Positions 1 to 46,291 of a stretch of 56,188 nt of DNA are shown piece after piece. The stretch is from the IMG/VR virus record IMGVR_UViG_3300021962_000038. One strand, given 5' to 3'. The stretch comes from an uncultured virus (IMG/VR IMGVR_UViG_3300021962_000038) (lineage: Duplodnaviria > Heunggongvirae > Uroviricota > Caudoviricetes). A program made the position numbers and the translations under genes. Each line of letters begins with the position of its first letter. The stretch's first letter is position 1. A model generated the notes under the pieces. The model was given only the letters and a program-made list of their open reading frames with translations. It had not been told where the DNA came from and searched no databases.

Positions 1-1
1 A

Positions 2-109
2 GGTGTTGACCATAGTAAACTTGTACCGCTTCTAACAAAAGCCATCCAAGAACAACAAACCATCATTGAAAACCTCAAAGCAAGAATAGAAACATTGGAG
101 AACGCATAA
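2..109 (+). CDS. C-terminal end of a tail fibre with an intramolecular chaperone (peptidase S74-like) coiled coil; partial
   Basis: Frame 2 reads GVDHSKLVPLLTKAIQEQQTIIENLKARIETLENA*, the typical end of S74 chaperone domains. Confidence 0.75.
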   Translation, partial: GVDHSKLVPLLTKAIQEQQTIIENLKARIETLENA

Positions 110-110
110 C

Positions 111-1034
111 ATGGCAACCACAAAGGTAACAAAAGGAGTCATTGCAGATAATGCTGTCGGTATAGATCAGTTAGATGTAACCGATGGATCAAACGGTCAA
201 GTTCTCTCTACAGACGGTAGTGGGACATTATCGTTCACTTCTGTTACAAGTTATTCTGATTCAGCTGTAGAGACATACTTAGATAGTGGAACATCAACCC
301 CTATTTTAGCAAATGCAACATTTGGTGGAATAATATTAAGAGATGGAAGTGGTTCTATAGGAATAAATAGAAACCCTTATAATGGTAATAGTGTTTCAGA
401 TTCAAACTTACAAAGATTTCAAATCAATGCTCCATCAAGTGGTTCAGACTTTTTAGATTTTCAATCTTATAACAGCAGCGGAACATATACAGGTAGTTTT
501 TATTTAAACGCTGGCAAGCTTGGTATTGGTACGAGTAGCCCAACAGATAGACTTCATGTAGTAGGAACTTCATTTTTAAATGGTAATACTTATGTTGGTT
601 CAGGTGGTTCAGGTAATATTTATCTTAGTGCAGGAACAGGTATTTACATGGATGGCGGTACAACTTCTGCAAATCTTCTTGACGATTACGAGGAAGGTAC
701 TTGGACTCCTAGTTTAAATGCAGGAAGTTTTAGTTCTGTAAATGCTAGATACACAAAAATAGGTAGGGTTGTTACATTAACAGTAGATGCAACAGTAGGT
801 ACTGGTGGTGGTTCACAAATATCTAACATACCATTTACTGCTGGAAATACTACAGGAACTGCAATATACACAAGTGGTCAAGATTTTAATAGTGGAAGAA
901 CAGTTCCAATTGTCATAGTAGGTGGTGGTTCAACTACAATGTATTTTAGAGATATAGGAGATAATGTATCTTATTTAGGATTGGCTTTAACAGCAGGTGC
1001 AGCAATTTCTTTTACTTTAACTTATGATGTGTAA
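111..1034 (+). CDS. Tail fibre/virion structural protein
   Basis: Gly/Ser/Thr-rich; GQVLSTDGSGTLSF, GKLGIGTSSP and LDDYEEGTWTP...YTKIGRVV motifs common in phage fibres. Confidence 0.7.
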   Translation: MATTKVTKGVIADNAVGIDQLDVTDGSNGQVLSTDGSGTLSFTSVTSYSDSAVETYLDSGTSTPILANATFGGIILRDGSGSIGINRNPYNGNSVSDSNLQRFQINAPSSGSDFLDFQSYNSSGTYTGSFYLNAGKLGIGTSSPTDRLHVVGTSFLNGNTYVGSGGSGNIYLSAGTGIYMDGGTTSANLLDDYEEGTWTPSLNAGSFSSVNARYTKIGRVVTLTVDATVGTGGGSQISNIPFTAGNTTGTAIYTSGQDFNSGRTVPIVIVGGGSTTMYFRDIGDNVSYLGLALTAGAAISFTLTYDV

Positions 1035-1087
1035 CATAAATTTAACTAATATACCTAGTGGATTCTAGGTAAGGAGAAAAAAATAAA

Positions 1088-1336
1088 ATGGCAATAACAA
1101 AAGAACTAATAGAAGATAAAATAGAAATCGTAGGCGATTACAAACATGTACAGGTAAGAACTGCTACAGTCATTAAAGAAGATGGCGTAGAACTTAACAG
1201 GTCTTTCCATAGACATAGCTTAAATTGCTTAGACGATATAAGTGGTGAATCTTCTGAAGTCCAAGCAATCTGCAATGCAGTATGGACTGACGAACTAAGA
1301 GCAGCTTATCAAGCACATTTAGATAGTCAAAACTAA
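1088..1336 (+). CDS. Small tail-fibre-associated protein
   Basis: Strong SD (AAGGAG); follows the fibre gene; VQVRTATVIKEDGVELNRSFHRH motif. Confidence 0.55.
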   Translation: MAITKELIEDKIEIVGDYKHVQVRTATVIKEDGVELNRSFHRHSLNCLDDISGESSEVQAICNAVWTDELRAAYQAHLDSQN

Positions 1337-1445
1337 AATCTGCATAGTTTTACAAAAAAACTTCCCAAAAACATATTGTTTGAAGAGTAAGACTTACTAA
1401 ATATATGTGTATATACCCAATAACATTTTTTAGGACACACTAAAC

Positions 1446-1679
1446 ATGGCAACACAAAACAAATTTGTTATCGAGTACGGACTTAGTGTAGGTTCTACAG
1501 AAGTAATCACATCTTCAGGTAAGATCGTTGCAGCTGCAATTTCAGACTTAGACACAGACGATCTTTCAGAAGGTTCTACAAATGTTTACTTCTCAACCTC
1601 AAGAGTCGATACTCATCTCGCAGACGGAACTGCATCAAAAACATTAAACAATGTTCAGATTGACGGAGGCACCATCTAA
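1446..1679 (+). CDS. Small virion/fibre protein
   Basis: N-terminus paralogous to the next gene; TDDLSEGSTNVYF fibre repeat motif; late promoter-like ACTAAATA at 1396. Confidence 0.55.
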   Translation: MATQNKFVIEYGLSVGSTEVITSSGKIVAAAISDLDTDDLSEGSTNVYFSTSRVDTHLADGTASKTLNNVQIDGGTI

Positions 1680-3319
1680 TGGCTGGAGAAAAGAACTTTG
1701 TAGTCAAGAACGGACTCTCTATCGGAACAACAGAGGTAATAACCTCTTCAGGTAAAGTTACATCTGCAGCTTTATCATCAAACACTGATTTCACAGAACA
1801 GGTACAAGATATTGTCGGTGCTTTTATCACAGGAACAGGGTCAACAACAGTAACCTACAACGATGCTGGTGATGCACTTACAATCTCATCAACAGGTAAA
1901 ACCGAAGAAGAAATCCAAGATATCGTTGGTGCTCAGTTAGTAACCAACGGTTCACATACAAACATTACTGCATCTTACGATGATGCAGGAGACGGTGCAG
2001 TTGATCTTTCTATCTCAGATGCAACAATCAGAGGAAAGATTTTAGTAACAGATGCAGGTGGAGATGGTTCACTTGCATATGATAACTCAACTGGTGTAAT
2101 CACTTACACAGGCCCAAGTGCTGCTGAAGTGCAAGCACATATCACTGCTGGAACAGGTGTGTCAATATCCAGTGGTGCAGTAAGTATCGGTCAGGCAGTA
2201 GGAACTTCAGATTCACCCACATTTGCAGGTATGACACTTACAGGTGCATCAACAGTTTCAGGACATATTCTTCCTAGTGCTGATGTTACCTACGACTTAG
2301 GTTCATCATCATATCAATGGCGAGATATCTATGTCGGGCCAGGGTCTTTATATGTTAACGGACAAAAGGTATTAGAAGATAACTCAGGAACAATTGTTGT
2401 TTCTGCTGATTCAGATCAGAATCTTCAGATAAAAACTGCTGGTAGTGGTGACATTGAGTTCAACCCATCAGGTACAGGTATCATTCAAGCAAAAGGAACA
2501 CTTCAAATGCTTGATGGTGAGTTGATCACCAACAGTGCTGGTAATGCAGTTGCATTCGGAAACAACATCACTGTAGATCAGATTACATCAAGAAGTGCAG
2601 ACACTAACTTAGTTCTTAGTGGAAACGGAACAGGTAATGTTACACTGAATGATAGTGTAAACATCACAGGTAACTTGACAGTTTCAGGAACTACAACAAC
2701 TGTAAACTCCGAAACTATTTCACTTGCAGATAACATCATTGCATTGAACAGTAATTTCACTTCAGGTGTACCAACAGAAGATTCAGGTATTAGTATCACA
2801 AGAGGTGGTTCAGCTGCAAAAACATTCTTATGGGATGAAACCAATGATAGATGGACAGTCGGTTCAGATTCAATGGTTGCAGGAACATTCATTGGTGGTC
2901 TAACAGGTAATGTCACAGGTAATGCAGACAGTGCTACTACACTAACAGGTTTGACTTCAACAGTTGCAGAACTGAACTATTCAGATGGTGTAACATCAAA
3001 CATTCAAACTCAGTTGGATGCAAAACAAGCTGCATCAACTGCTCTTACAACATCAACAACTTTTGGTGGTGATGTAAGTGGAACATATAATGCTATAGTA
3101 ATTGCAGACGACTCACACAATCATATCATCGGAAATGTTGATGGATTACAATCAGCACTTGATGCAAAATATGGTAGTGGTTCTAATGCAACACTAGGTA
3201 CAATAACAACAAGTAATGCTTCAAATGCAGGTGGATATGTAAGAAATATTTACCAATCAACATCAACACCTTCTTCAGGTGATGGTGCGGTTGGTGATCT
3301 TTGGGTATACTACGCATAA
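1679..3319 (+). CDS. Tail fibre protein
   Basis: 546 aa, T/G/S-rich; EQVQDIVGA repeated; GNLTVSGTTTTVNS; C-terminal STPSSGDGAVGDLWV. Confidence 0.75.
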   Translation: MAGEKNFVVKNGLSIGTTEVITSSGKVTSAALSSNTDFTEQVQDIVGAFITGTGSTTVTYNDAGDALTISSTGKTEEEIQDIVGAQLVTNGSHTNITASYDDAGDGAVDLSISDATIRGKILVTDAGGDGSLAYDNSTGVITYTGPSAAEVQAHITAGTGVSISSGAVSIGQAVGTSDSPTFAGMTLTGASTVSGHILPSADVTYDLGSSSYQWRDIYVGPGSLYVNGQKVLEDNSGTIVVSADSDQNLQIKTAGSGDIEFNPSGTGIIQAKGTLQMLDGELITNSAGNAVAFGNNITVDQITSRSADTNLVLSGNGTGNVTLNDSVNITGNLTVSGTTTTVNSETISLADNIIALNSNFTSGVPTEDSGISITRGGSAAKTFLWDETNDRWTVGSDSMVAGTFIGGLTGNVTGNADSATTLTGLTSTVAELNYSDGVTSNIQTQLDAKQAASTALTTSTTFGGDVSGTYNAIVIADDSHNHIIGNVDGLQSALDAKYGSGSNATLGTITTSNASNAGGYVRNIYQSTSTPSSGDGAVGDLWVYYA

Positions 3320-3338
3320 TAGCGTATAGTGAGGATAA

Positions 3339-4202
3339 ATGGTAACAGGTAATCAAAAGGTAAAAACGCCTACTGGTTGGAGTGCAACTAGAGGTGCTTG
3401 GGTAAAGACTGCATCAGGCACATGGTCAGCAGTCAAACAAATTTATATCAAGACACCTACTGGTTGGAATGATGCTTCAGGTCAAGCACTAGTACAACAA
3501 CCTTACCCTTACATTGCAAACGCTCAACAACCGTATATCGCTAACGCACAACAACCATACGCGTATCAAGCAAACGCTCAGACACCATATATTGCTAATG
3601 CTCAACAGCCTTATCCATATATTGCGAATGGACAACAACCTTATATTGCTAACGCACAACAACCTTATCCATATATTGCGAATGCTCAGACACCTTATAT
3701 CGCTAACGCTCAACAGCCTTATCCGTATATAGCAAACAGTCAGACACCATTCACATATCAGGCGAGGTCACCGTTTACATATAGTAATAGATATCCTGCA
3801 AATGCTCAGCAACCTTACATTGCAAATGGTCAAACCCCATTTACATATAATGCTAGATCGCCGTTTACATATAACGCAAGATATCCTGCTAATGCACAAC
3901 AACCTTACATTGCAAATGGTCAAAACCCATTTACATATAATGCTAGATCGCCGTTTACATATAGTAATAGATATCCTGCTAATGCTCAGCAACCATATAT
4001 AGCAAACGCAAGACAGCCAGGGACATATCAAGCATCTTATAGGGTTCCTTATATTGCAAATGCTAGGTCACCATTTACATACGATGCAAGATATCCAGCA
4101 ACATATCCTGCAAATGCTCAACAACCAAACACATATACATTTTTCACGGATAGAGCTTACTACTTCCAAGGCCCGCCTGGGAATGTACCATCATTTAAGT
4201 AA
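3339..4202 (+). CDS. Repeat protein A: Trp-rich N-domain plus 25 [QR]xP units; putative fibre strand
   Basis: VKTxxGW repeats in aa 1-52; units of 6/8/10 aa in aa 53-260; SD GAGG. Confidence 0.8.
   Translation: MVTGNQKVKTPTGWSATRGAWVKTASGTWSAVKQIYIKTPTGWNDASGQALVQQPYPYIANAQQPYIANAQQPYAYQANAQTPYIANAQQPYPYIANGQQPYIANAQQPYPYIANAQTPYIANAQQPYPYIANSQTPFTYQARSPFTYSNRYPANAQQPYIANGQTPFTYNARSPFTYNARYPANAQQPYIANGQNPFTYNARSPFTYSNRYPANAQQPYIANARQPGTYQASYRVPYIANARSPFTYDARYPATYPANAQQPNTYTFFTDRAYYFQGPPGNVPSFK
3495..4118 (+). repeat. Coding tandem repeat array of protein A (208 codons)
   Basis: QQPYIANA / RSPFTY / RYPANA units; 90-nt block in 3 copies at 3741-4010. Confidence 0.95.
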
Positions 4203-4210
4203 AGGAAATT

Positions 4211-4942
4211 ATGGCACTAGGATTTTATCAAATACCACTTCAGGGAAACTCAAGGTCTCCGTTTACCTATCAGGTATCCTATCGCGTTCCTTATATTGCA
4301 AATGCTCAACAACCTTACACATACAATGCAAGATATCCAGCAACATATCCTGCAAACTATCAGAATCCGTTTACATATAATGCAAGGTCACCATTTACAT
4401 ATAGGGTTCCTTACATTGCTAGTGCTCAACAGCCTTATATAGCAAACGCAAGACAACCATTTACTTATAACGCTAGATCACCGTTTACTTATCGAGTGCC
4501 TTATATTGCGAATGCTCAACAACCATATATAGCAAACGCAAGACAGCCATTTACATATCAAGCTAGAACGCCGTTTACTTATCGTGTGCCTTATATAGCA
4601 AATGCTCAACAACCATATATTGCAAATGCTAGACAACCAAATACATATCAAGCACAAGGTAGAACTCCGTTCACATATCAGAACAGATCGCCTTCTACAT
4701 ATCCTGCACAAGGTCAGACACCATTTACATATCAAAACAGATCACCGTTTACATATGAAACACAAGGTCAGACACCGTTCACATATCAGAACAGACAACC
4801 TAGTACATATCCAACAATAGGTAGAACACCGTTCACATATCAGAACAGATCACCATTCACATATCAAGCACAAGGTAGAACACCAGTTGCAAGATGGGAT
4901 GGTACATTGACACAACAGTGGCCTGCAACACCTATCACATAA
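4211..4942 (+). CDS. Repeat protein B: 25 [QR]xP units, mirror partner of protein A
   Basis: Own SD (AAGGA) and ATG; units in aa 15-222; C-terminal VARWDGTLTQQWP. Confidence 0.8.
   Translation: MALGFYQIPLQGNSRSPFTYQVSYRVPYIANAQQPYTYNARYPATYPANYQNPFTYNARSPFTYRVPYIASAQQPYIANARQPFTYNARSPFTYRVPYIANAQQPYIANARQPFTYQARTPFTYRVPYIANAQQPYIANARQPNTYQAQGRTPFTYQNRSPSTYPAQGQTPFTYQNRSPFTYETQGQTPFTYQNRQPSTYPTIGRTPFTYQNRSPFTYQAQGRTPVARWDGTLTQQWPATPIT
4253..4876 (+). repeat. Coding tandem repeat array of protein B (208 codons)
   Basis: RSPFTY / RVPYIANA / RTPFTYQN units; 90-nt block in 3 copies at 4361-4630. Confidence 0.95.
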
Positions 4943-4981
4943 TACACTAAATAATTGATATTATATTTTTTGGGATGAATT

Positions 4982-6565
4982 ATGCCGACAGACTTTATTA
5001 AATTAGAGTCAGTAGAAGATGCTAAACAAGTAAAACCTATTGACTGGACTGAAAAACCAACACTTATCCACTTAAGAACTACTCAACCAAATTATCATTT
5101 GGGTACCTTATCTGTAAATAGATATTCTGAAAACAGTAAAACATATCAAATTCTAAAATATCTATTTGATAATAATATCCTTCCACCTCTAAAATATTTC
5201 AAGTGGGGTGCAATAAAGGATGATATCAAGAACGATAAATTTCGTGCATTTCATGGTCTCAGACATCATGCATCAAACTATCTAAGTTTTTTACATCATG
5301 GGTGGACTTGTAGTCCTAAGTCACCAAAGGTAGGTATGCTTGGTGGAATGGATTTCCAAAGTGGTGATGAAACAGAAAAGTCAATTACAGATTTTACCTC
5401 TATAACAAATCCTTCAGATTGGGACAATCATAATCTAAGTTCAATTTACTATCATTCTGCAAAAGCACACTGGTTAGTTCATAGTATGCAAGAAGAGGGA
5501 TTGTGGGCACCTATACAAGGGGTGGTAGAAAGTGTACCTGAAAGTAAGGATAATTACAGAGTCTTCATTCATCCTGGCTCTGTTCGTTCTTGTGTTATAG
5601 AAGAGTTAGATGACTCTGAAAATGATTGTCTCTTTTTTGATCCATACAATCTTTTACCCCACATTGATCCTATAGGAGTAGATGAATACTTGCAATTATG
5701 GAAAGAGAAGTTAAATAAAAAGGGAGTGAAACATGATGATATATCACTCATAATGAATGGGGGAGTTATTGAAATACAATCATCTCTTGCAACATTAGAT
5801 TTCAGACATCAGGTCTATGAATTTAACAAGAAAGTTCATATATTGACAAATAAAAAACCCTTCAATATCTATATTGGTTATGACTCAACACAAAATGGTG
5901 TAGAAAAAGTATGTAAACATTCTATACAAACAACAATAGAGAAATCATGGTCTAGAGGTAGAAATATGGATTCTACTTATTTCATGCCTGAAATAAAGTA
6001 TCTTGACATATCCAAGATCCCTGAGTATACTAGACCGTATGCAAATCAAAATACTGAATTTACATATAGTAGATTTTTGATTCCATACTTGGAAAACTAT
6101 GAAGGATTTAGTATGTTTGTGGATGATGATTTTGTATTTACAAAAACATTGTTACCAATGTTTTATTTTCTAAATCCTGATCATGCAGTTGCATGTATTC
6201 AGTACCCACAGTACAAACATGATACAACAAAATTTGTAGGTGCAGTCAATATAGACTATCCAAGAAAATTGTGGTCTAGTATGATGATATTCAACAATGG
6301 TCATGAGGATTGTAAAAAACTCACACCTGAGGTTATCAACACTTGGACTGGTGCTCAACTGCATCAATTTCAATGGACAGAAAAAATTTCTAAAATTCCT
6401 GAACATTTCATTTTTACAGAGGGGTACGATGATCCTGAAACTAAATGGAATGTTAGTGGATATCACTATACAAGGGGAGGCCCTTGGATTGATGGAATGG
6501 ATTGTTCTAGTATAGAAAGACTTGAATACTATGAAAAAGCAAAGTCTTCCATGCAGTCTAAATAA
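4982..6565 (+). CDS. Two-domain protein with C-terminal GT-A glycosyltransferase (GT8/CDI-like) and unknown N-domain
   Basis: IYIGYDS, TEFTYSRFLIPYL, FVDDDF (DxD), YPRKLWSSMMIFN, HYTRGGPW. Confidence 0.8.
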   Translation: MPTDFIKLESVEDAKQVKPIDWTEKPTLIHLRTTQPNYHLGTLSVNRYSENSKTYQILKYLFDNNILPPLKYFKWGAIKDDIKNDKFRAFHGLRHHASNYLSFLHHGWTCSPKSPKVGMLGGMDFQSGDETEKSITDFTSITNPSDWDNHNLSSIYYHSAKAHWLVHSMQEEGLWAPIQGVVESVPESKDNYRVFIHPGSVRSCVIEELDDSENDCLFFDPYNLLPHIDPIGVDEYLQLWKEKLNKKGVKHDDISLIMNGGVIEIQSSLATLDFRHQVYEFNKKVHILTNKKPFNIYIGYDSTQNGVEKVCKHSIQTTIEKSWSRGRNMDSTYFMPEIKYLDISKIPEYTRPYANQNTEFTYSRFLIPYLENYEGFSMFVDDDFVFTKTLLPMFYFLNPDHAVACIQYPQYKHDTTKFVGAVNIDYPRKLWSSMMIFNNGHEDCKKLTPEVINTWTGAQLHQFQWTEKISKIPEHFIFTEGYDDPETKWNVSGYHYTRGGPWIDGMDCSSIERLEYYEKAKSSMQSK

Positions 6566-6584
6566 TTATTATTGAGGAAAAATT

Positions 6585-7154
6585 ATGAACCATAAAATGA
6601 ATGCATTTGTTTTTTGTGAGAACTCAAATCTTTTTATCAGAAAACCTAATGGATTAGAGTACACATTTGATAATGTAGATACACCTGCACTAGGATTTGA
6701 ATATGAAGTGTTAGTGTATGATGAAATAGAAGTAAAAATCTTGAAATGGGATTGGGATAAAACTTTCCATGAACAAGAAAAAATACCTCTATCAGATAAT
6801 GAAAAAGAAATTATAGAAAACTATATTTCAAATTCTGAACCACCTGAGGGTGTAACACTTGCAGGTCAAATAATCAATCGTCTAAAAACTTATATTACCT
6901 CTGAAGTATTACAGATGTGTCATATGCTTGGGTTTGAGGATTTGAATGAAGTTGCAGTTGCAGGACGAGAGGGGTCAAACCATCCGTATCGTTCAAATGC
7001 AAGGAGAGTGTTAGAGTATGTGGATGCAGTTTGGAATGTCTTTGATGATGTTTCAAATGATGTCTTTAGAACTAGAGAAGATCATCTAAAACCATTACAA
7101 GAATATATTCTAATAATACCTAGAGCTGCAGTACTACCTGATCAAGAAAGATAA
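6585..7154 (+). CDS. Hypothetical protein, possibly a tail fibre assembly chaperone
   Basis: C-terminal LGFEDLNEV...HPYRSNARRVLEYVDAVW loosely resembles fibre-assembly proteins; SD GAGG. Confidence 0.4.
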   Translation: MNHKMNAFVFCENSNLFIRKPNGLEYTFDNVDTPALGFEYEVLVYDEIEVKILKWDWDKTFHEQEKIPLSDNEKEIIENYISNSEPPEGVTLAGQIINRLKTYITSEVLQMCHMLGFEDLNEVAVAGREGSNHPYRSNARRVLEYVDAVWNVFDDVSNDVFRTREDHLKPLQEYILIIPRAAVLPDQER

Positions 7155-7873
7155 TGTCCAAAACTCTTGATGTAGTTTATCTAGATAAACCATTCAAAAT
7201 TCAAGATCTACCACTTACAAGTGTGTATGTTTTTGATAATTGGTTATCTTCTGAATTACATCATTATTTTGATAAGTTTATAGTTAATGAACAATTTTGG
7301 TCTAAATCAAATCAAGTAGGAAGTAGTAGTCCCACAGGATTGCCTCATCATAGTTTTTGGGGTGCATCGTTTTTTCGTCAGAACTTTGAATTAGAACATG
7401 GTATCAAACCATATCAAGCATTTTTTGCAAATTATCTAATCCGTAGATTAGAAACAGAGTTTGGTTTCAAGTGGGTTAGATTTCAATATGCAGGTTTGAA
7501 TTCTCAGACTGTTGGATTACAGGGTACAACTCATAAAGATTGTCAAGATGAAGATGCATGGAATCTCTCCTTTCTTTATTATCCAAATCGTTTTTGGAAT
7601 AAAGAATGGGGTGGAACACTAAGACTCTATGATGAGATGCAACAGGGTTTAGATGGGAGAGATGAACATATAAAAAACCATCAAATTGCAGAGATAGAAT
7701 TTGTTCCAAATCGTCTTGTAATGTTTGATGGAAGAATACCACATGGTGCAGATGCACCTGATCCGTCTGCACGATACATAGACAGGAGATCTCTTGTGGT
7801 AAGAGGTGATGAAGTAAGATTAGTAGATAGTGAGGAGTTTTTTTATGCCAACGATAGAATTCGTCGCATATAG
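7154..7873 (+). CDS. 2OG-Fe(II) oxygenase (prolyl hydroxylase-like)
   Basis: HKD (HxD), WNKEWGGTL, PNRLVMFDGRIPH, distal Arg. Confidence 0.85.
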   Translation: MSKTLDVVYLDKPFKIQDLPLTSVYVFDNWLSSELHHYFDKFIVNEQFWSKSNQVGSSSPTGLPHHSFWGASFFRQNFELEHGIKPYQAFFANYLIRRLETEFGFKWVRFQYAGLNSQTVGLQGTTHKDCQDEDAWNLSFLYYPNRFWNKEWGGTLRLYDEMQQGLDGRDEHIKNHQIAEIEFVPNRLVMFDGRIPHGADAPDPSARYIDRRSLVVRGDEVRLVDSEEFFYANDRIRRI

Positions 7874-8714
7874 TGAAGAAACTGTAAAGTATTTCAAACC
7901 TGTTCTTGCATCAACAGTTCAGCCTGATTGGTGGAAGAAGATGAAGATAATGGAAATAAATAGGGGTCACCGACAACATACTGTTCGTGCATGTCCCGCT
8001 ATGGATGATTGGTTGAGAATAGGATACTATCTGATTGCAGCTCAGGATATAGAAGTTATAAATGGTGTGTCTGATACTGACGAAGGTGATGAAAGATTTT
8101 CAACTGCAGACATTAGTGGTAATGGTATAAATTCCATTAGTCATCCTGCATCTCAGATGGGAAATGTTTTTGAGTTTTTAGGTGACGGTGGCCCAATAAA
8201 GGATGCATTCAAAATGAGAAATCCATGGAATGTGATCACTCCTAAGGGGTATTCTTGTTTCTACTTAGATCCATTTTTACATCAAAATAGATATTTCTCA
8301 ACATGGCCTGGTATCATAGATACTGATAGTTTCAATATCAATCAAGATAATGCACAAATCATTTTTTATCCCAAAGTTGAAAAGGGATTTATAATACCAA
8401 AGGGAACACCGTTAGTGCAAATTATTCCTTTTAGACGAGAGGAGTGGGTTGCCTCTTATCAACTAAGAAGTCACAAAGCATATATCGAAAATCTATCCTC
8501 TAGAACTTCACCTCATGGTGATGTACCAAATAGATTATCAATGTCTGAACATAGAAGAAGGGATCCTGAGGGAGATGCGTTTTCTATCGGGCCATATCGT
8601 AAACATGGATATTGGCATAGAAAAGATCAGTTTTTTAAGAAAATAGAAGAAGGTAAATGTCCTTTTCATACAGAGGAAGAAAGTCCTGAAAAACAAATGG
8701 AGTTTGATTTCTAA
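7845..8714 (+). CDS. DUF6065-like (dUTPase-like fold) protein
   Basis: ACPAM, PWNVITPKGYS, GIIDTD, IPKGTPLVQIIPFRRE; likely ATG at 7845 after GAGGAG. Confidence 0.55.
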   Translation: MPTIEFVAYSEETVKYFKPVLASTVQPDWWKKMKIMEINRGHRQHTVRACPAMDDWLRIGYYLIAAQDIEVINGVSDTDEGDERFSTADISGNGINSISHPASQMGNVFEFLGDGGPIKDAFKMRNPWNVITPKGYSCFYLDPFLHQNRYFSTWPGIIDTDSFNINQDNAQIIFYPKVEKGFIIPKGTPLVQIIPFRREEWVASYQLRSHKAYIENLSSRTSPHGDVPNRLSMSEHRRRDPEGDAFSIGPYRKHGYWHRKDQFFKKIEEGKCPFHTEEESPEKQMEFDF

Positions 8715-9415
8715 TGGCAGTTCGATTACTATTTCCAACCTTTATATTTCACAGATATTTGCTAGACCCAAATCTACCTGAGGACAGAGGTGTATCTCAA
8801 GATTATCTAAATTTACTTAGACATGAAATGGATAATATGAGAAAGAAAGATCCTAAAGGTAGACAAATTTCTAATGCATACACTGGATGGCAATCCAATG
8901 ATGGATGTGAAAGTCACCCTGCATTTGTAAAACTTATGAGAAGAATTGTCCATACCTTTAACGATGAGGTGTTACCGTTTCATGGTCTTTCTAAAAATAC
9001 TCATAAAGTAGAAATAGGTAATTGTTGGGCAAACATAAATGATTATCTTGCATGGAATAGACCCCACTTTCACAATGGTTGTTGGTATAGTGGTGTGTTC
9101 TATATCAAAGGAGATGGTGATGAAGGGTCTATCAGCTTCTTAGATAAGGACAATAAGGTTGTTGCAGACTTTCCATCATGTCAGAGGACTAGATCATCAG
9201 AGGAATTTCCACCAGTTTCAGGTAATTTGATTTTGTTTCCAAGTGGTGCAATGCACATGGTTGATCCTAATATTACAGATAAAGAGAGATACAGTGTATC
9301 ATTCAATATCAACATTCATAGATTAAGTAATGAATACCATGGTAATATAAAGAACTATAATCCTGATGAATTCGTTTTCGATTTAGATGAAAATGGTAAC
9401 CCATTGATGGGTTAG
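8714..9415 (+). CDS. Putative 2OG-Fe(II) oxygenase (TIGR02466-like)
   Basis: WANIN, HFH, SGVFY, LILFPSGAMHMV, RYSVSFN. Confidence 0.85.
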   Translation: MAVRLLFPTFIFHRYLLDPNLPEDRGVSQDYLNLLRHEMDNMRKKDPKGRQISNAYTGWQSNDGCESHPAFVKLMRRIVHTFNDEVLPFHGLSKNTHKVEIGNCWANINDYLAWNRPHFHNGCWYSGVFYIKGDGDEGSISFLDKDNKVVADFPSCQRTRSSEEFPPVSGNLILFPSGAMHMVDPNITDKERYSVSFNINIHRLSNEYHGNIKNYNPDEFVFDLDENGNPLMG

Positions 9416-9432
9416 TTTATCTAAATATGTAT

Positions 9433-9693
9433 ATGGAAATTATAGTAGATGCTCATATTATATGGAATATCTTACTAACATTTGTTCTAGCACCTTTGGG
9501 GTTCTTAGTTCGTAATGTACTCACAGAACAAAAACGAATAGATATTTTGATCAATAAAACTAGAGAAGAAGTAGCAAAAGATTATGTTACTAAAGACGAG
9601 TTGGCCGAAGATATGGAAAGATTAGTTAGAATGATTGAAAGAATTGACCAAAAACTAGATCGATTACAGAACCGAACTTACTTCCAAGAGTAA
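9433..9693 (+). CDS. Small membrane-anchored coiled-coil protein
   Basis: One TM segment (IIWNILLTFVLAPLGFLV) then coiled coil; late promoter-like TCTAAATA at 9420. Confidence 0.55.
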   Translation: MEIIVDAHIIWNILLTFVLAPLGFLVRNVLTEQKRIDILINKTREEVAKDYVTKDELAEDMERLVRMIERIDQKLDRLQNRTYFQE

Positions 9694-9699
9694 AATCAT

Positions 9700-9707
9700 T
9701 ATAAATA
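9700..9707 (+). promoter_or_regulatory. T4-type late promoter
   Basis: TATAAATA upstream of gp13. Confidence 0.8.
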
Positions 9708-9740
9708 GTAGAAGAACATAATTTTTTATGGAATACTACT

Positions 9741-10556
9741 ATGTCAGAACCAAACAGTAAAGCAACACTAAAGTCTTATATAAAGAGAAGATTGGGAGCT
9801 CCAATCTTAGAAATCAATGTTGATGATGACCAGTTTGATGACAGAATTGATGAAGCACTTCAGTATTTTAGAGAGTTTCATTATGATGGTTCTATCAAGT
9901 GTTATCTGAAACATCAATTATCTGCTGATGAAATAACCACACTAAAATCAGATGAGACTTTCACAGAGACAGCTGCTGGGTCACAAGTTCATACAGATCA
10001 ACAATATAAACTACAACAAAATTATATCACATTACCTGAGTTTGTCTTGTCAGTTATAAACATATTCCCTTTCAACGACAAACACAACCTCAATATGTTT
10101 GACCTCAGATATCAACTTAGATTGAATGATATCTATGATCTAACTGCAACAAACATTCTCTATTATGAGATGGTGCAACAACATATCTCACTACTTGATA
10201 AAATACTTGTAGGTCAAACACCAATAAATTATTCAACCCATCAAAATAGATTGTATATGCACATGGATTACAATAGTGTAAATGCAGGTGAGTATATTAT
10301 TATTGAGTGTTATAGAAAAATCGATCCCACAGATTTCACCGATATTTACAATGACTTATGGTTGAAGAGATATGCAACTGCATTAGTCAAGTATCAATGG
10401 GCAGAGAACTTATCTAAATTCTCAGGTATTCAGTTGCCTGGCGGAGTAGCATTAGATGCAGGTCAAATGAAAACCGAAGCACAAGAGGAAATCCGTAGAC
10501 TAGAAGAAGAGTCAAGACTCAACTATGAGTTCCCAGTCATGGATATGATGGGGTAG
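9741..10556 (+). CDS. gp13: Neck protein gp13
   Basis: RRLGAPILEINVDDDQ; KYQWAENLSKFSGIQLPGGV; synteny. Confidence 0.95.
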   Translation: MSEPNSKATLKSYIKRRLGAPILEINVDDDQFDDRIDEALQYFREFHYDGSIKCYLKHQLSADEITTLKSDETFTETAAGSQVHTDQQYKLQQNYITLPEFVLSVINIFPFNDKHNLNMFDLRYQLRLNDIYDLTATNILYYEMVQQHISLLDKILVGQTPINYSTHQNRLYMHMDYNSVNAGEYIIIECYRKIDPTDFTDIYNDLWLKRYATALVKYQWAENLSKFSGIQLPGGVALDAGQMKTEAQEEIRRLEEESRLNYEFPVMDMMG

Positions 10557-10559
10557 TAA

Positions 10560-11408
10560 ATGCCAACTAATGTATTTTTTAACCATGCAGTAAGTACTGA
10601 ACAACACCTTTATGAGGATTTGGTTGTTGAGGCTTTACGATTTTATGGACACGATGTTTACTATCTACCTAGAGAGATTGTAGAAGAAGATAAAATACTA
10701 GGCGAAGATGTTCAGTCTACTTTCGGTGATTCTTATCAAGTAGAGATGTACTTAGATAATGTCGAAGGTTTTGAGGGAGAAGATTTATTCTCAAGATTTG
10801 GTGTACAAACACAAGAAGAAGCAACATTTACATTAGCACTTAGAACATGGGAAAGATTTATTTCGTTAGACAGCAACCTTGCAACAAGTCTAAGACCAAA
10901 TGAGGGTGATCTCATATACTTCCCACTTTCAGGTTCATTGTTTGAAATTCGATATGTAGAAGATCAAAATCCTTTCTTCCAAATAGGAAAACTTTTTGTC
11001 TTCAAACTCAAATGTACATTATTTGAATACTCAGGTGAAGACTTTGATACAAATATTGATGCTATTGATCTTGTCGAAGATGATAACGCTTATACTATTC
11101 AACTCACAATGGCAGGTGGTTCAGGTAATTATTATCCAAATGAAAACATATCGTACAACAGTTCAGTGATAGGTGAAGTTGTATCATGGGTACCTTCAAC
11201 AAGTAAACTCACAATCAAAGATGTAACAAGAACATTAGAGGTGGGTGATACACTTGTGGGTGCTGGTGGTGCATCATGGAATATATCATCAATTACTGAT
11301 ATACTTACAATGAATGCAAGTGAAGGACTTGCAACAAACAAAGAGTTTGAAGACAATGATTCAAATTACTTAGACTTTAGTGAAACAAATCCATTTGGTG
11401 AACCTTAA
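10560..11408 (+). CDS. gp14: Neck protein gp14
   Basis: GHDVYYLPRE, RPNEGDLIYFP, DFSETNPFG. Confidence 0.95.
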   Translation: MPTNVFFNHAVSTEQHLYEDLVVEALRFYGHDVYYLPREIVEEDKILGEDVQSTFGDSYQVEMYLDNVEGFEGEDLFSRFGVQTQEEATFTLALRTWERFISLDSNLATSLRPNEGDLIYFPLSGSLFEIRYVEDQNPFFQIGKLFVFKLKCTLFEYSGEDFDTNIDAIDLVEDDNAYTIQLTMAGGSGNYYPNENISYNSSVIGEVVSWVPSTSKLTIKDVTRTLEVGDTLVGAGGASWNISSITDILTMNASEGLATNKEFEDNDSNYLDFSETNPFGEP

Positions 11409-12448
11409 TGTTTGGTACATATTTTTACAATGAAACGATAAAGAGAAGTGTGTCTATCTTTGGTACACTTTTCAATAATATCAAAATCAGAAAAACAAAA
11501 TCAGACGGTACTGTTCTGACTGAACAGATTGTGCCTATATCTTATGGCCCCAAACAGAAATGGTTACAAAGGCTCAATCAGGATCCAAAGAAAAGAGATG
11601 CGAACATCACTGCAATGTCATTACCAAGACTTGCATTTGAACTTAGTTCATTTGAATACGATGCAACAAGACAACAAAACAAACTTATCAGAAATACAAA
11701 GCCTGCATTAGAAACAGGAAACACATCTCGTAAATTTCAATATGCACCTGCACCTTATAATCTAAAATTTACACTTAGTGCAATGTGTAAAAACATGACG
11801 GATGCATTGCAAATTGTAGAACAAATCGTACCTTATTTTCAACCTGAATATACAGTTACAATGAAAATGATTGATGATCTAACTGATGTTAGAGATGTTC
11901 CAATTGTTCTAAATTCAATCTCATTTGAAGATAGTTACGAAAGTAGTTTTGAAGAAAGAAGAGTTATTGTTTATACTTTTGAGTTTACCATGAAAGTATA
12001 TTTCTTCGGCCCAGTTTATCAAGGAGACATTATCAAGAATGTTATCGAAAGAGAATACATCAACGATAGTGTTTCAGGTCAGTTTACTACATCACAAATT
12101 GATGAGAGTGGATTGGTCAAAGAAATCAAACACTACGAACCTGCATTTGGAGAAGTTGCAAATGCAGTATCCAACTCAACTACAATCACTTTTGATACTG
12201 CAATAAATAGTAAGATAAGTGTTGGAGATGAAGTATTTTACACAGGAAACACACCTAATCCAACAATCAGTAGTATTGCAGCTGATAAATTATCAATCAT
12301 ATTGAATACTGCTGTAACTATAACTGAACCGAAAACGATTATGTTTGTTGGTTCAGTGCAACCAACTGATACATTTGTGGTTGCAGAAACAGTGACATTT
12401 TATGATGATGGTGCTAAAGAAACATTTAGTGAAACCGATGACAGTTAA
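11408..12448 (+). CDS. gp15: Tail sheath stabiliser/terminator gp15
   Basis: YFYNETIKR...FGTLFNNI, VPISYGPKQK, QIVEQIVPYFQP. Confidence 0.95.
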   Translation: MFGTYFYNETIKRSVSIFGTLFNNIKIRKTKSDGTVLTEQIVPISYGPKQKWLQRLNQDPKKRDANITAMSLPRLAFELSSFEYDATRQQNKLIRNTKPALETGNTSRKFQYAPAPYNLKFTLSAMCKNMTDALQIVEQIVPYFQPEYTVTMKMIDDLTDVRDVPIVLNSISFEDSYESSFEERRVIVYTFEFTMKVYFFGPVYQGDIIKNVIEREYINDSVSGQFTTSQIDESGLVKEIKHYEPAFGEVANAVSNSTTITFDTAINSKISVGDEVFYTGNTPNPTISSIAADKLSIILNTAVTITEPKTIMFVGSVQPTDTFVVAETVTFYDDGAKETFSETDDS

Positions 12449-33977: not shown

Positions 33978-36269
33978 ATGGAAAACCTAAGAACACAAAA
34001 AGACAATCTTGCCAAACTAATGGCCACTGAGAACCTGACTATCGTGCATAGGAAAATCCCTACTGCATATTTTGATATCAAAAACAGAGTTCTTGCTTGT
34101 CCTATTCTAAAGGACGATATCTCACCTGAACTTTATGACTTGTTTATGGGTCATGAAGTATCACATGCATTACACACACCTTTTGAGGGATTACACTCTA
34201 CTCTCAAAGAAAATAGAACTCTCAAGGGATACCTCAATGTTGTTGAGGATGTCAGAATTGAGAAAATGATCAAAGAGAAGTATGCAGGTCTTAGAAAGTC
34301 TTTCTTCAAAGCATACAATGAATTGATGAACATGGACTTCTTTAGTCTAAAAGGTAGAAACCTACAAGAACTTTCGTTGATTGATAAGATCAACTTGCTC
34401 ACTAAAGTTGGTTCAAGGGTCAACATCAAACTGACTGACAAAGAACAGGAGTTTTTAGACTGGTCTTATAGATGTCAGACTTGGGAAGATGTTGTTGAAT
34501 GTGCAACTGCGATTTATGAATACTCTAAAGAGAATGAAACAAGAACAAAAGAAGATGAGGAAATCAAAGGATCATTTGAATACGACATAGAAGAAAGTGA
34601 TGATGAAGTTGATCTAGGTGAAGAAGATTATCCTTTTGAGCCATACACTGGTGAAGAAGATGATGATATAGAAGAAAGTGATATAGAACTAGATGAAACT
34701 CAACAATCAACAGTGCATGATCATTCTGCTGGTTCTCAATTTGATGATGAAGATGGTGCAAGAGAAGCTCTTACCGAATACAATGCACATGAAAACGAAG
34801 ATACTCTTTACAGCACAGAGAACAGGATCAGAACACAAATTGATTTGAGAAAAGAATGGAAAGAAGTAAAAAACCAAGAGGTTATTGTTCCTAACAAAGA
34901 GTTCAACAGTGATTGGTCTAAGTTTTGGAATTCACCTACAGATGATTACAGTTATAGATGGGGTGCCTACAGTGTAGGTGATGGATACAATCTTGCAAAG
35001 AAAACTTCTAACATCATAGAGTTGAAAAACAAAAAGACCGTTATGCACATGGTCAAAGAATTTGAAATGAGACAATCAGCTGCTATAAGTGCAAAAGCAT
35101 ATACTGGTAAAACTGGTCAACTTGATATGAACAGACTTGCAAAATATCAGATTGTTGATGATGTTTTCAAAAGAGCAGTCTACCTTCCTGAAGGTAAAAA
35201 TCATGGTATCACAGTGTTGATAGATTGGTCAGGTTCTATTTCAAATGTAGTTCCTGATTTATTAGAACAAGCAATCATTCTCACAATGTTTTGTAGAAAA
35301 GCACAGATACCTCACAGAGTATATCTTTTTACTGATAGTTATGGTAAAAGAGATCTAGGTATGAGTACAAACCTTATTGAAATATTCTCAAACGAACAGA
35401 GTTCAAGAGACTACAAACAAAGTTTACTCAATGTAAGTGCATTATATAACGCACATGCTTTTAGTGATAGAGGATGGAGAGGATACGAAAAGTTCAAAGC
35501 AAAATGGGAAGGACACTTCAAAGAAGCACTCAAAGTAGATGATAGTACAAGATGGGTGCAGATACCACATTTTGTTCAAGGTCGTTATCATTTAGGTGGA
35601 ACACCTTTAGATGCATCACTTGTGTATTTGAGAGAAACTTTACCTAAGTTCAACAAACAATATAGCATTGAGAAATCTATACTAACCGTTATTACAGATG
35701 GTGAAAGTCATAGTTCAAGATTATTCAGTAGAGATAAAGTTCAAGAACAAATCCAAGATCAAACTGTTGAGGGAACAAATCATTATACACCTGTTGAGAT
35801 TGAGATCATTGATCCTTACAATAACAAAGTTTATCCGATTGTAAAACCTGTTGGAAAATACAATGGTTCTTCAAACTTCAGAACAACCCAACATATTTTA
35901 GAATGGATTTCTAAATCTTGTAATGTAAGTTGCACTGGATACTTTATTGGAACATCAAGAAATGATTTCTACCACATCTATGATAAAATTAGGGAAGATA
36001 GTCGAATTAACTCTGAAAACCATTCATACATGAGATTTGATGAATGGTATAAAGTTGCAAAAAAAGAAGGTCAGGTTGCAAACATAAAAGGATATAACAA
36101 AATGTTCATTACAAGTGCAAACCTAATCAAAGTAGATGATGAGGATACACTAGATGATAAATTCATTGGAGCTACAAAAACCTCAGTGCTTGCAGCTTTC
36201 AAAAGAAACAGAAAATCAAAAACAACATCAAGGTTCCTAACTAACGAATTTATAAAGGAGATATCATAA
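33978..36269 (+). CDS. CobT-like protein: HExxH metallopeptidase-like N-domain, acidic linker, vWA domain
   Basis: GHEVSH, NVVEDVRIE, DWSGS MIDAS, GGTPL, VITDGES. Confidence 0.85.
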   Translation: MENLRTQKDNLAKLMATENLTIVHRKIPTAYFDIKNRVLACPILKDDISPELYDLFMGHEVSHALHTPFEGLHSTLKENRTLKGYLNVVEDVRIEKMIKEKYAGLRKSFFKAYNELMNMDFFSLKGRNLQELSLIDKINLLTKVGSRVNIKLTDKEQEFLDWSYRCQTWEDVVECATAIYEYSKENETRTKEDEEIKGSFEYDIEESDDEVDLGEEDYPFEPYTGEEDDDIEESDIELDETQQSTVHDHSAGSQFDDEDGAREALTEYNAHENEDTLYSTENRIRTQIDLRKEWKEVKNQEVIVPNKEFNSDWSKFWNSPTDDYSYRWGAYSVGDGYNLAKKTSNIIELKNKKTVMHMVKEFEMRQSAAISAKAYTGKTGQLDMNRLAKYQIVDDVFKRAVYLPEGKNHGITVLIDWSGSISNVVPDLLEQAIILTMFCRKAQIPHRVYLFTDSYGKRDLGMSTNLIEIFSNEQSSRDYKQSLLNVSALYNAHAFSDRGWRGYEKFKAKWEGHFKEALKVDDSTRWVQIPHFVQGRYHLGGTPLDASLVYLRETLPKFNKQYSIEKSILTVITDGESHSSRLFSRDKVQEQIQDQTVEGTNHYTPVEIEIIDPYNNKVYPIVKPVGKYNGSSNFRTTQHILEWISKSCNVSCTGYFIGTSRNDFYHIYDKIREDSRINSENHSYMRFDEWYKVAKKEGQVANIKGYNKMFITSANLIKVDDEDTLDDKFIGATKTSVLAAFKRNRKSKTTSRFLTNEFIKEIS

Positions 36270-36615: not shown

Positions 36616-37869
36616 ATGAATAAAAGAACCTATGATAGGTCGGAGAGTGTTACCGTTGCAGGTAAACCTTTCCATTTTACGCCAGATAGAAAGGAATTTC
36701 TAACTGCACTAACCACAAACTTCCCCAATCAGGTGGAGTTTACTTCAGAACAGATCAACCAAGTAGGAGACTTTCCATACTGGATAAAATCTGCAAGGTA
36801 TAATTTCAAACAAAATGGGGTTTTCAATCTATCCCAAGTTTTGAATGTGGTGCCTATGACCAAGACTACACCACCACCAAAAGCTTTTATGCCTACTGCA
36901 CCTAAGGTATCGAATATGCCTGTTGCAGCTCAGACACAAAAGACAATCAATCTTATTGAGGACAATGTAAAAATCATTCCTGAGAAGATGACAAACTATG
37001 TTCCTTTTGGTCATTTCAAAGATGTAGAGAATATCATCAAGTCTAAGATATTCTTTCCAATCTTTATTACTGGTCTAAGTGGTAATGGTAAGACACTTAT
37101 GGTTGAACAAGTGTGTGCTAAACTCAAGAGAGAACTCTACAGGGTCAATATCACCATCGAGACAGATGAAGATGATTTGATGGGTGGACACACTTTAGTC
37201 AATGGTAACATTACTTTCAGAGAAGGCCCAGTTATCAAAGCTATGAGAAAAGGTGCCGTCCTTCTCTTAGACGAAGTTGACTTGGGTTCTAACAAAATGA
37301 TGTGTTTACAATCAGTTCTTGAGGGTAAAGGATATCTAATCAAGAAAACTGGTGAATGGGTATCTCCTGCAGAAGGGTTCACAGTGGTTGCAACTGCAAA
37401 CACTAAAGGACAAGGATCTGAGGATGGTAAATTCATTGGAACTCAAATCATGAACGAAGCTATGTTGGAAAGGTTTGCTATTTCAATGCAACAAGAATAT
37501 CCACCAGTCAATATTGAGAGAAAAATTCTTGAAAAGGAAATGGAACTTCATGGTGAAGTTGATATGGAGTTTATCAAGAAACTTGTAGACTGGGCGGACA
37601 TTATCAGAAAAACCTACTACGAAGGTGCAATTGATGATGTCATCACCACTAGAAGATTGGTTCACATCATCAACGCATTCAAAATGTTTGGTGATAAACT
37701 CAAGTCAATCCAAATGTGTATCACAAGATTTGACGAAGATACCAAGAATGCAATACTTGATCTCTATTCTAAAATAGACGAAGGTGTTGATGTGTCAGGA
37801 ATGTTTGGTGAAGTATCGGAAGATACCTCATCAGACGAGGATTACCAAGAGGATACACAATATCCATAA
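36616..37869 (+). CDS. cobS: CobS-like MoxR-family AAA+ ATPase
   Basis: GLSGNGKT, LLLDEVD, ATANTKGQG, NEAMLERF. Confidence 0.9.
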   Translation: MNKRTYDRSESVTVAGKPFHFTPDRKEFLTALTTNFPNQVEFTSEQINQVGDFPYWIKSARYNFKQNGVFNLSQVLNVVPMTKTTPPPKAFMPTAPKVSNMPVAAQTQKTINLIEDNVKIIPEKMTNYVPFGHFKDVENIIKSKIFFPIFITGLSGNGKTLMVEQVCAKLKRELYRVNITIETDEDDLMGGHTLVNGNITFREGPVIKAMRKGAVLLLDEVDLGSNKMMCLQSVLEGKGYLIKKTGEWVSPAEGFTVVATANTKGQGSEDGKFIGTQIMNEAMLERFAISMQQEYPPVNIERKILEKEMELHGEVDMEFIKKLVDWADIIRKTYYEGAIDDVITTRRLVHIINAFKMFGDKLKSIQMCITRFDEDTKNAILDLYSKIDEGVDVSGMFGEVSEDTSSDEDYQEDTQYP

Positions 37870-45569: not shown

Positions 45570-46291
45570 AAAAAACTAAAAAATCATACGACAAGCCACT
45601 CTTATGGATAGGGTGGCTTGTTTTACTATCTTATTGTGGTCTTATTTTTGCAGACGACAATGAAATTACTATTTACCAAATCAGTGGAGATAACTTCAAT
45701 CTCACAATAGATCAATATGGTGCAGACAATGTCGTCAAAATGTATGATGCATATTCTTATGTCAGTGGTGCAAATATGTCATTGCATTTTTATCAAAACA
45801 ATGATGGTTCAAATCAAAACACAATAGACCTTTGGCATTTAGATGGATCAAATAATAGTATTCGTTGGGGTCAAGGTGGAAAATTAGATGATGCCTCTGA
45901 TACAACATTCTATTATGATGGAAGTGAAAGTGGTGGTCATTATGCTAACTTTGATATACATGGAAGTAATAATAATGTTGTAGGTTGGCAAGCAAACTCA
46001 GGTAATGGTGCTCACACATATAATCAATTAATCTTTAGTAGTTATAATGATGTATATGTAGAACAACGAGGTGATGGTGCTAAAACATTAAATCTTACCA
46101 TTAGTAATGATGGTAATGATGTAGAAGTAATTCAAATGAATACTGGACATACAGCAACAATTAACTTATCAGGTTCAGACCCAACCACATTAAATCTTTT
46201 ACAACAAGGATATACATCACAATCATATTCACTTTCACAAAGCTGTGTTACAGTGGGTGGTTGTTCAGTATCAGTCACACAAGGTAACTAA
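45557..46291 (+). CDS. Second secreted curlin-like protein
   Basis: Signal IFA|DDNEITIYQ; Q/N-rich repeats (IDQYGADN, VEQRGDG); C-terminal CVTVGGCSVSVTQ. Confidence 0.72.
   Translation: MDILEKTKKSYDKPLLWIGWLVLLSYCGLIFADDNEITIYQISGDNFNLTIDQYGADNVVKMYDAYSYVSGANMSLHFYQNNDGSNQNTIDLWHLDGSNNSIRWGQGGKLDDASDTTFYYDGSESGGHYANFDIHGSNNNVVGWQANSGNGAHTYNQLIFSSYNDVYVEQRGDGAKTLNLTISNDGNDVEVIQMNTGHTATINLSGSDPTTLNLLQQGYTSQSYSLSQSCVTVGGCSVSVTQGN

Follow-up and report, generated by a model that had tools for sequence, protein, structure and literature searches.

Organization of the A and B genes and their mirrored unit order

The window analysed here is a 56,188-nucleotide (nt) stretch of DNA from an uncultured virus of the Caudoviricetes (IMG/VR record IMGVR_UViG_3300021962_000038), and our subject is a pair of adjacent genes on its + strand, A and B, which encode repeat proteins of opposite unit order. 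According to the list of open reading frames (ORFs), gene A (3339..4202) encodes 287 amino acids (aa) and is composed of a Trp-rich N-terminal domain (3339..3494, aa 1-52), a repeat array of 25 units (3495..4118, aa 53-260, 208 aa) and a C-tail (4119..4199, aa 261-287), all on the + strand. The C-tail, which is the variable end of the pair, opens with an extra triad, QQP-NTY, opposite the QIP triad of B. A spacer of 8 nt (4203..4210, +) with AGGA 4 nt before the ATG leads to gene B (4211..4942, +, 243 aa), composed of an N-tail, a second array of 25 units in the reverse order of A (4253..4876, +, aa 15-222, again 208 aa), and a conserved C-tail, RTPVARWDGTLTQQWPATPIT (4877..4939, +), which aligns opposite the N-domain of A. 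Alignments of 16 homologs showed that W14, W21, W29, W43 and the KTP motifs are invariant in the A N-domain, the conserved end of the pair, as are T224, P225, V226, R228, W229, D230, L233, W237, P238 and P241 in the B C-tail. The window pair fits the A/B family as defined here: an A-type ORF of Trp-rich N-domain and array, and directly downstream, in the same orientation, a B-type ORF of array and RWDG..L.Q.WP tail. The A stop and the B start overlap or abut in many relatives, with a gap of -1 to 3 nt in 18 of 55 pairs.

The arrays were parsed by cutting before each [QR]xP triad, which divided A into 27 pieces and B into 28. A preliminary description of this DNA, made from the letters and the ORF list, had counted 25 units and 208 aa in each protein; we recovered these as the central pieces, and the pieces outside them are QQPNTY... 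and QGPPG... in A, and QIPLQGNS, RTPVARW... and QWPATPIT in B. The unit lengths from N to C terminus are 10,8,10,8,10,8,10,8,10 / 3 x (8,8,6,8) / 10,8,8,10 in A and 10,8,8,10 / 3 x (8,6,8,8) / 10,8,10,8,10,8,10,8,10 in B. As had been claimed, the A series is the B series read backwards at 25/25 positions, the forward order agreeing at only 9/25. The permutation test that had been proposed for this mirror order bore it out: none of 200,000 shuffles of the B units gave the mirror (best 21/25, mean 11.3).

The residue pairings of the description could be reproduced exactly. An A[NS]x triplet lies opposite an xTY triplet in 25/25 unit pairs, and the middle residues of the 26 opposed triads are Y:V four times, V:Y once, Q with S, T or N 20 times and T:S once. 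The symmetry is not a DNA inverted repeat, as the description had also held, since no inverted repeat of at least 14 nt was found in 3339-4942. In the best antiparallel register 26 of 27 triads stand opposite triads with 0 aromatic clashes, and all Pro residues (60/60) fall on a single residue parity. We conclude that the mirror observed in the window is real and had even been understated, and that its decisive support comes from the family-wide comparison below.

The length series of the window consists of three blocks, which recur reversed: nine units alternating between 10 and 8, three 30-aa super-repeats, and 10,8,8,10. The super-repeat, made of two FTY-type and two IANA-type units, is inherently complementary to a phase-shifted copy of itself. 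At the DNA level, direct repeats link the 3' array of A with the 5' array of B (4004-4137 versus 4246-4379, 75% identity) and a second stretch of A with B (3702-4034 versus 4322-4654, 69-77% identity), both repeat pairs lying about 240-440 nt apart. Recombination between them would remove the gene junction and could yield fused or shortened forms.

Conservation of the mirror across relatives

Homologs of A numbered 271 at E <= 0.001. A scan of viral contigs found relatives in 215 of 216 candidate stretches, from which 80 loci were kept for comparison. Relatives of A were present in all 80 of these fetched loci, and a B-like ORF followed directly in 73; the other seven carry a single repeat ORF, several at a contig end. 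The 73 pairs reduced to 54 unique pairs, and with the window 55 pairs were available. Unit number ranges from 22 to 70 in these pairs (about 70 in L033; the shortest natural pair, L063, has 247 and 200 aa) and the series differ widely, often being aperiodic. Across the 73 loci with a pair, B is 200-559 aa long and the lengths of A and B increase together. The reversed B matches A almost unit for unit across the relatives, for example in the aperiodic architectures of L019, L028, L033 and L038.

To score the match, we used the share of triads, in the chain with fewer triads, that stand exactly opposite triads of the partner. In the window and the 54 other pairs, the best antiparallel offset matched a mean of 98.2% of triads and the best parallel offset 58.9%. 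Non-cognate combinations of A and B, normalised identically, reached 46% versus 98% for cognate pairs. After one pair had been dropped from the ranking (L024, whose B is truncated by the contig end), no B matched better than the cognate one for 51 of the 54 A proteins. Among 43 distinct A architectures, just 24 of 1806 non-cognate combinations reached the lowest cognate score. Thus the homologous pairs, whose correlation the preliminary description had made the touchstone of its proposal, do correlate in both unit number and unit order. The antiparallel register is also unique: the runner-up offset matches on average 56% as many triads, and in this comparison it brings 517 aromatic:aromatic contacts, where the best offset has 6 in all. 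Pairing of A with A or of B with B was rejected as a candidate, the self-mirror counts being near the parallel-register figure (mean 59%). The mirrored aperiodic architectures and the excess of cognate over non-cognate matching indicate more than chance within the window.

Residue code of the paired regions

We then examined the residues of the paired regions throughout the family. All 4372 Pro residues lie on one residue parity and 5058 of 5063 Tyr and Phe residues on the opposite one, which also holds most Ala, Val, Ser and Gly, while Ile, Thr, Asn, Gln and Arg are mostly found on the Pro parity. Unit lengths in the arrays are 6, 8, 10 or 12 residues. This strict two-residue period fits the beta-strand alternation that had been suggested from the even unit lengths, and its persistence across hundreds of residues is characteristic of extended beta strands and incompatible with a helix of period 3. 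Two other folds were tried and rejected: a polyproline-II or collagen-like reading, because the period is 2 and not 3, the units are of 6, 8, 10 or 12 residues and all Pro share one parity; and a beta-solenoid, because a constant coil length is lacking, the lengths of units and super-units changing without period along an array.

The facing positions follow fixed rules. In opposed triads, Q1 stands opposite P3, x2 opposite x2, and P3 opposite R1 or Q1; between triads, position k of an 8-residue unit stands opposite position 12-k (Y4:A8, I5:N7/Q7, A6:Y6, N7:T5 and A8:F4). Only one of 7594 facing pairs on the aromatic parity is aromatic:aromatic, where 843 would be expected under independence, and sliding the register by 2-8 residues produces 294-1657 such pairs. 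The small-against-aromatic arrangement noticed in the window therefore holds family-wide. The commonest facing cores are YIANA:FTYQN (189), YPYIANS:GTYARQG (77), FTYNA:YIANA (76) and ANA:FTY (63). Among 1884 opposed triad middles, Q:T and T:Q account for 672, Q:S and S:Q for 350, Y:V and V:Y for 153, N:N for 129, and E:S and S:E for 107, with Q:Q found just 9 times.

A conserved end and a variable end

The two ends of the pair differ in conservation. The last residue of B lies opposite residue 30-37 of A in 54/55 pairs, the exception being the truncated L024, which indicates a fixed end geometry. The B tail, ..RTPV.RWDG.L.Q.WPATP, is always set against the end of the conserved Trp-rich N-domain of A, that is, its last ~19 residues. 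The Trp-rich domain of A and the Trp-containing tail of B thus meet at one end, where they had been placed from the window.

At the other end, the C-terminus of A takes three forms in relatives. The first is a short tail, as in the window. In the second, a polyGly stretch is followed by Cys and a Hint-type domain of ~160 aa ending in ..VHN-Gly (for example L007:4001-5296, and likewise L054, L065 and many further A homologs). Pfam Vint, Hint or Intein_splicing matches were obtained for three of four tested homologs of this form (L007, L054 and L065, not L001), whereas A and B of the window gave no match to the Hint-family models PF01079, PF14623 and PF14890 at E <= 0.01. In these relatives Met1 of B lies opposite A 0-8 residues before the Gly|Cys junction, and the B start often overlaps the A stop. 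Homologs of this form read G-G-C-F at the junction, and L006, L007, L013 and L014 read VHN near the end, then Gly, the +1 nucleophile being absent. With Gly after HN, classical splicing is not expected. The sequence would fit a C-terminal module that removes itself; the domain could instead transfer the C-terminus of A onto the adjacent N-terminus of B.

In the third form, A ends in another domain of ~150 aa (L028:5066-5542), and an acidic ORF of ~100 aa (L028:5563-5865) stands between it and B. AlphaFold2, run with 9 sequences, rendered this A domain as all-beta at low confidence, with a mean predicted local distance difference test (pLDDT) score of 55.6, and a Foldseek search of the model against the PDB returned nothing at E <= 0.001 (best E 0.085, template modelling score below 0.3). 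A position between A and B, as for this small ORF, is the usual site of a fibre chaperone, and the ORF may be chaperone-like. The usual layout of phage fibres combines conservation at the proximal end, variability at the distal end and a small ORF alongside.

A sister family with single-chain forms

A search for longer homologs recovered proteins with A/B-type repeats and a different N-terminus, M-S/A-D/E-E-I-Y-I/V-N-T-G; their B-type partners end in ..EKIHQSVPNAQF. Some of these sister proteins are 460-530 aa long with 37-46 triads and fold back on paper, the N-half standing antiparallel to the C-half. In one such chain, P0072, 32 of 43 triads are self-mirrored about the midpoint and the A/B code is retained. 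The sister system shares its viral contigs with the A/B pair, from which it lies ~8 kb upstream, as a scan with the B-like protein P0097 showed. In the phage of the window, such a system would lie before position 1; the nearest record, a 29-kb fragment (G001), gave no match to the sister-family B. It consists of two adjacent genes in 18 unique pairs (L085:2796-4828, L087, L102, L094 and others) and of one fused gene in four loci (L091:3767-5233, L097:3116-4711, L098:149-1615 and L133:3197-4729). Two-gene examples (L084, L085 and L087) matched 21/23 triads, and the end geometry of the sister family is constant.

On the six contigs that carry both systems, the cognate registers contain 0-1 aromatic clashes, while cross-pairs contain 2-12 and match about half of the triads, so that the two systems look orthogonal at the level of their residues. 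Fused single-chain hairpins, which had been anticipated, exist as fold-back chains in the sister family; in the family of the window pair, no A-B fusion was found among 204 fetched proteins by a length-limited, word-based search, which is weak evidence of their absence. The gene pairs may have arisen by the splitting of a hairpin, or the hairpins by the fusion of a pair.

Searches for relatives and structure prediction

A and B matched no Pfam or PHROG family, including none of the T4-type tail fibre and fibritin families. A query of the ESM Atlas with B gave scores of at most 0.80, a lead only, with nothing usable. Megablast of window positions 1-12000 found no DNA match among 50,697 phage records. 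The low-complexity filter of BLAST may hide matches to the arrays; the A N-domain, which was among the protein queries used against the same records, is non-repetitive.

Predictors render both A and B as disordered. Prediction of the A+B complex gave scores of 0.00 and 0.02 from 16-row alignments run without controls, which is not evidence either way, and AlphaFold2 on the single-chain P0072 with 13 relatives gave a mean pLDDT of 31.8 and was unusable. The preliminary description had known of no account of such a system; we likewise found no description of a mirror-coded pair, nor of one of comparable length, two-chain nature or barcode order, in open-access PMC and bioRxiv full text.

Proposed structure of the pair and its alternatives

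We consider it probable (about 0.7) that A and B form an antiparallel, register-coded beta-ribbon heteroduplex that serves as a fibre shaft in the host-recognition cluster of the phage, and the interpretation of the preliminary description is supported to that extent. The two proteins would be the two chains of one long thin shaft, of ~210 residues each (~165-525 in relatives), running antiparallel in a single register; in the window, residue i of A would lie next to residue 276-i of B (0-based). The chains would zip into a beta ribbon of two antiparallel strands, which may be bundled further, with the prolines of both strands at outward-facing, non-hydrogen-bonded positions, where they would cap the edges and block sheet growth, and with the aromatic rings covering small residues of the opposite strand. 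Units of 6, 8, 10 and 12 residues in aperiodic order would act as a barcode that admits only the full-length cognate register and also prevents cross-pairing with the second, related pair of the same phages. At ~0.33 nm per residue, the shaft would measure ~70 nm in the window and about 55-175 nm in relatives.

The conserved end, made of the A N-domain and the B C-tail, is probably the virion-proximal attachment cap, and the variable end, with the C-terminus of A and the N-terminus of B, is probably the distal tip, which in relatives would carry the Hint-type domain or the beta domain of ~150 aa. The pair is likely to serve as a tail fibre or whisker belonging to the host-recognition cluster, and the context offers no support for the molecular ruler that had also been suggested. 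In Hint-bearing variants, the C-terminal Gly of A may be ligated to the N-terminus of B, giving a covalently closed hairpin. A wider proposal, to which we give even odds, is that the pair is a protein analogue of a nucleic-acid duplex: a positional code (aromatic/small, Q/T-S, Y/V and Pro-triad punctuation) would direct pairing, unit order would be the address, the register would be unique over 60-170 nm, and two orthogonal duplexes would be present per cell.

Several observations weigh against a two-chain ribbon of this kind. Within the family, the B of L010 lacks 36 aa of the B of L009 while their A proteins are identical, the A of L036 (compared with L033) carries one extra 20-aa block, and L076 and L078 disagree in their mirror match. 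These rare mismatched pairs have a surplus of 20-36 aa in one chain, mostly inside exact tandem repeats, and could reflect assembly collapse of repeats or real mismatches or bulged intermediates. Strict triad matching is looser in the sister family (0.41-0.91). In the window, each of the length blocks is palindromic or periodic, which inflates the apparent 25/25, and the middle and inner blocks of A and B are mutual direct DNA repeats of 69-77% identity, so that the 25 unit pairs of the window amount to a handful of independent facts. A profile search of the PDB gave no solved relative of A or B, its sole match having an E value of 0.29, and tblastn with A, the A N-domain and P0066 found no cultured carrier among the 50,697 phage records. 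We know of no solved structure of a lone two-stranded ribbon that spans 60-170 nm and has a Pro at intervals of 2-10 residues, and further strands or another partner may be needed.

This last point bears on the strongest alternative, in which the contact between A and B is the same and the functional unit is a bundle of several ribbons, such as A2B2 joined by its aromatic faces, or A3B3 as three-fold phage fibres would lead one to expect. The residues of one parity (Tyr, Phe, Ala and Val) are strongly hydrophobic and would be exposed to solvent if the ribbon stood alone; the phage fibres known are trimers, and the neighbouring gene is fibre-like. A second interface is however not required by the sequence, and prolines at one parity on both chains would be expected to hinder edge-to-edge growth of a sheet. 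We regard such a bundle as a serious but less favoured possibility.

It is considerably less probable that B acts on A, or A on B, as an assembly splint or chaperone of full length that is removed once folding or attachment is complete. Dedicated chaperones, encoded alongside the fibre genes, are reported to be a common need of phage fibres (PMC9608196), and the variable distal domains are found on A, B being array plus tail alone. Against this, the C-tail of B is among the most conserved parts of the pair and co-localises with the A N-domain, the fused single-chain forms retain both halves permanently, and the loci with the ~150-aa A domain already possess a separate small ORF that is chaperone-like.

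Slightly more doubtful still is the view that A and B do not touch, but run with opposite polarity along a common third partner or are extended low-complexity coat or adhesive proteins, perhaps hydroxylated or glycosylated, the mirror being a reflection of that template. The conserved GT8-like transferase and 2OG oxygenase neighbours described below, and the disorder predicted for both proteins, would suit this view. A common template, however, predicts like opposite like, whereas one aromatic:aromatic pair was seen in 7594; the fold-back single chains favour direct contact, and the period of 2 excludes the polyproline-II period of 3. Finally, the notion that the mirror is a by-product of periodic tandem repeats in two paralogous genes, to which the direct DNA repeats and the palindromic or periodic block lengths lend some colour, has next to no probability: it is refuted by the aperiodic relatives mirrored just as exactly (L019, L028, L033 and L038), by the cognate match far above the non-cognate one, and by the shuffle test.

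Comparison with known systems

The nearest analogue in principle of the antiparallel A/B duplex is the stalk of streptococcal antigen I/II (SpaP/P1), in which a single chain has two repeat regions of opposite direction that intertwine over more than 50 nm (PMC7732690). That stalk carries a variable domain at its fold-back end and the chain ends lock at the other, a logic that matches the single-chain forms of the sister family. It differs in being built from an Ala-rich alpha helix and a Pro-rich helix of one chain in a Gram-positive adhesin. In the A/B system both partners are rich in Pro and aromatic residues with a period of 2, there are usually two chains, the carrier is a phage, and no sequence relation was seen.

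The whiskers of T4 fibritin (wac) and the T4-type tail fibres (gp12 and gp34-37) are, like the proposed A/B shaft, fibrous virion appendages encoded between the baseplate genes and gp13/gp14, with a conserved N-terminal attachment end and a variable distal end. They are parallel homotrimers, either coiled coil or beta-helix/beta-spiral, and we know of no T4-type fibre that is an antiparallel heteroduplex with mirrored unit order. Hint or bacterial intein-like (BIL) domains and the self-cleaving C-terminal chaperone domains of phage fibres resemble the many A homologs that end in polyGly-Cys...HN; unlike them, the A of the window has no such domain, and in the homologs HN is followed by Gly. 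Heterospecific coiled coils, such as type I/II keratins and designed orthogonal pairs, also join two chains in a register set by residue complementarity, and orthogonal pairs coexist in one cell, but they are alpha-helical, heptad-based and mostly parallel, whereas A and B have a period of 2, are Pro-delimited and antiparallel, and would take their register from the order of unit lengths. The trpzip peptides, the 'aromatic rescue' of Gly, OspA and the SasG rods share thin beta structures with cross-strand pairs and no classical core, but are short hairpins or single-chain domains.

If A and B pair as proposed, they would represent a fibrous protein architecture that has no described counterpart and whose physical structure we infer from sequence. 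It would be a new fibre fold, a heteromeric antiparallel beta-type shaft whose register and choice of partner are set by unit order, and would add a class of host-recognition appendage to those of phages, carried by T4-like phages that are marine, abundant and uncultured. It would also offer protein design a natural, orthogonal and length-programmable code of beta-strand pairing, and with it a beta-ribbon scaffold, programmable by nature and tunable in length. An evolutionary puzzle, for the study of which hundreds of natural pairs are at hand, is how dozens of insertions and deletions stay mirrored between two genes.

Genomic context

The window comes from the genome of a T4-like myovirus, with homologs of gp13, gp14, gp15, the large terminase, tail sheath, portal, scaffold, the gp23 major capsid protein, UvsW, a gp46-like nuclease subunit and a family-B DNA polymerase. 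By capsid protein the nearest phages are Pelagibacter phage HTVC008M and Methylophilales phage Melnitz (65.5% identity), followed by cyanomyophages at ~61%. The A/B module lies directly upstream of the neck genes (the gp13/gp14/gp15 homologs). In pelagimyophages the corresponding region is named the 'host recognition cluster' and holds tail fibres and GT8 glycosyltransferases (PMC7029224).

Upstream of A, a tail-fibre-like gene (1679..3319, +, 546 aa) has tblastn matches to annotated tail fibre and structural phage proteins. Downstream of B, a GT8-like gene (4982..6565, +, 527 aa) has a nucleotide-sugar transferase-like C-terminal half; its product matches phrog_28018 at 1.4e-37, an annotated nucleotide-diphospho-sugar transferase and, short of the curated cutoff, Pfam Glyco_transf_8 (E 0.0054), the N-terminal half of ~290 aa being unassigned. 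It is followed by a 189-aa ORF (6585-7154), a 2OG-Fe(II) oxygenase of the PF13640 type (7154..7873, +; Pfam 33.6 bits versus a cutoff of 27) and a 294-aa ORF (7830-8714), both ORFs being syntenic with the A/B pair. The order fibre-like gene, A, B, GT8-like gene, 189-aa ORF, 2OG oxygenase and 294-aa ORF is conserved: in the 80 loci, the fibre-like gene was found in 79, the GT8-like gene in 74, the 189-aa ORF in 68, the 2OG oxygenase in 51 and the 294-aa ORF in 25, the later counts being limited by the 4-kb flank. Comparison of the neighbour genes with the PDB and NCBIfam gave just a generic 2OG oxygenase signal. Speculatively, the transferase and the oxygenase might modify the Pro/Thr/Tyr/Asn-rich arrays.

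Four DNA sequencing runs contain 82-92% of the sampled words of 1679-6565. Three metatranscriptomic libraries yielded contigs with relatives, 90-95% alike, of portions of A, B and the fibre gene, among them a contig of 1108 nt that spans the end of the fibre gene into A. Since these are contigs, DNA carry-over is possible for all of them and transcription is not implied.

Elsewhere in the window, the 644 bp between a 307-aa ORF and the fibre-like gene (1035-1678) have no ORF of at least 100 aa, in a genome otherwise tightly packed. A CbbQ/NirQ-type AAA ATPase gene (36616-37869, phrog_249) adjoins the gene of a 763-aa phrog_459 ('peptidase') protein (33978-36269), and the two resemble an auxiliary gene pair unrelated to A/B. 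An unusual phage signalling gene at 46291-48129 encodes a 612-aa protein (phrog_35576) with a CHASE2 sensor (Pfam 4.2e-33) and an adenylate/guanylate cyclase domain (2.7e-19).

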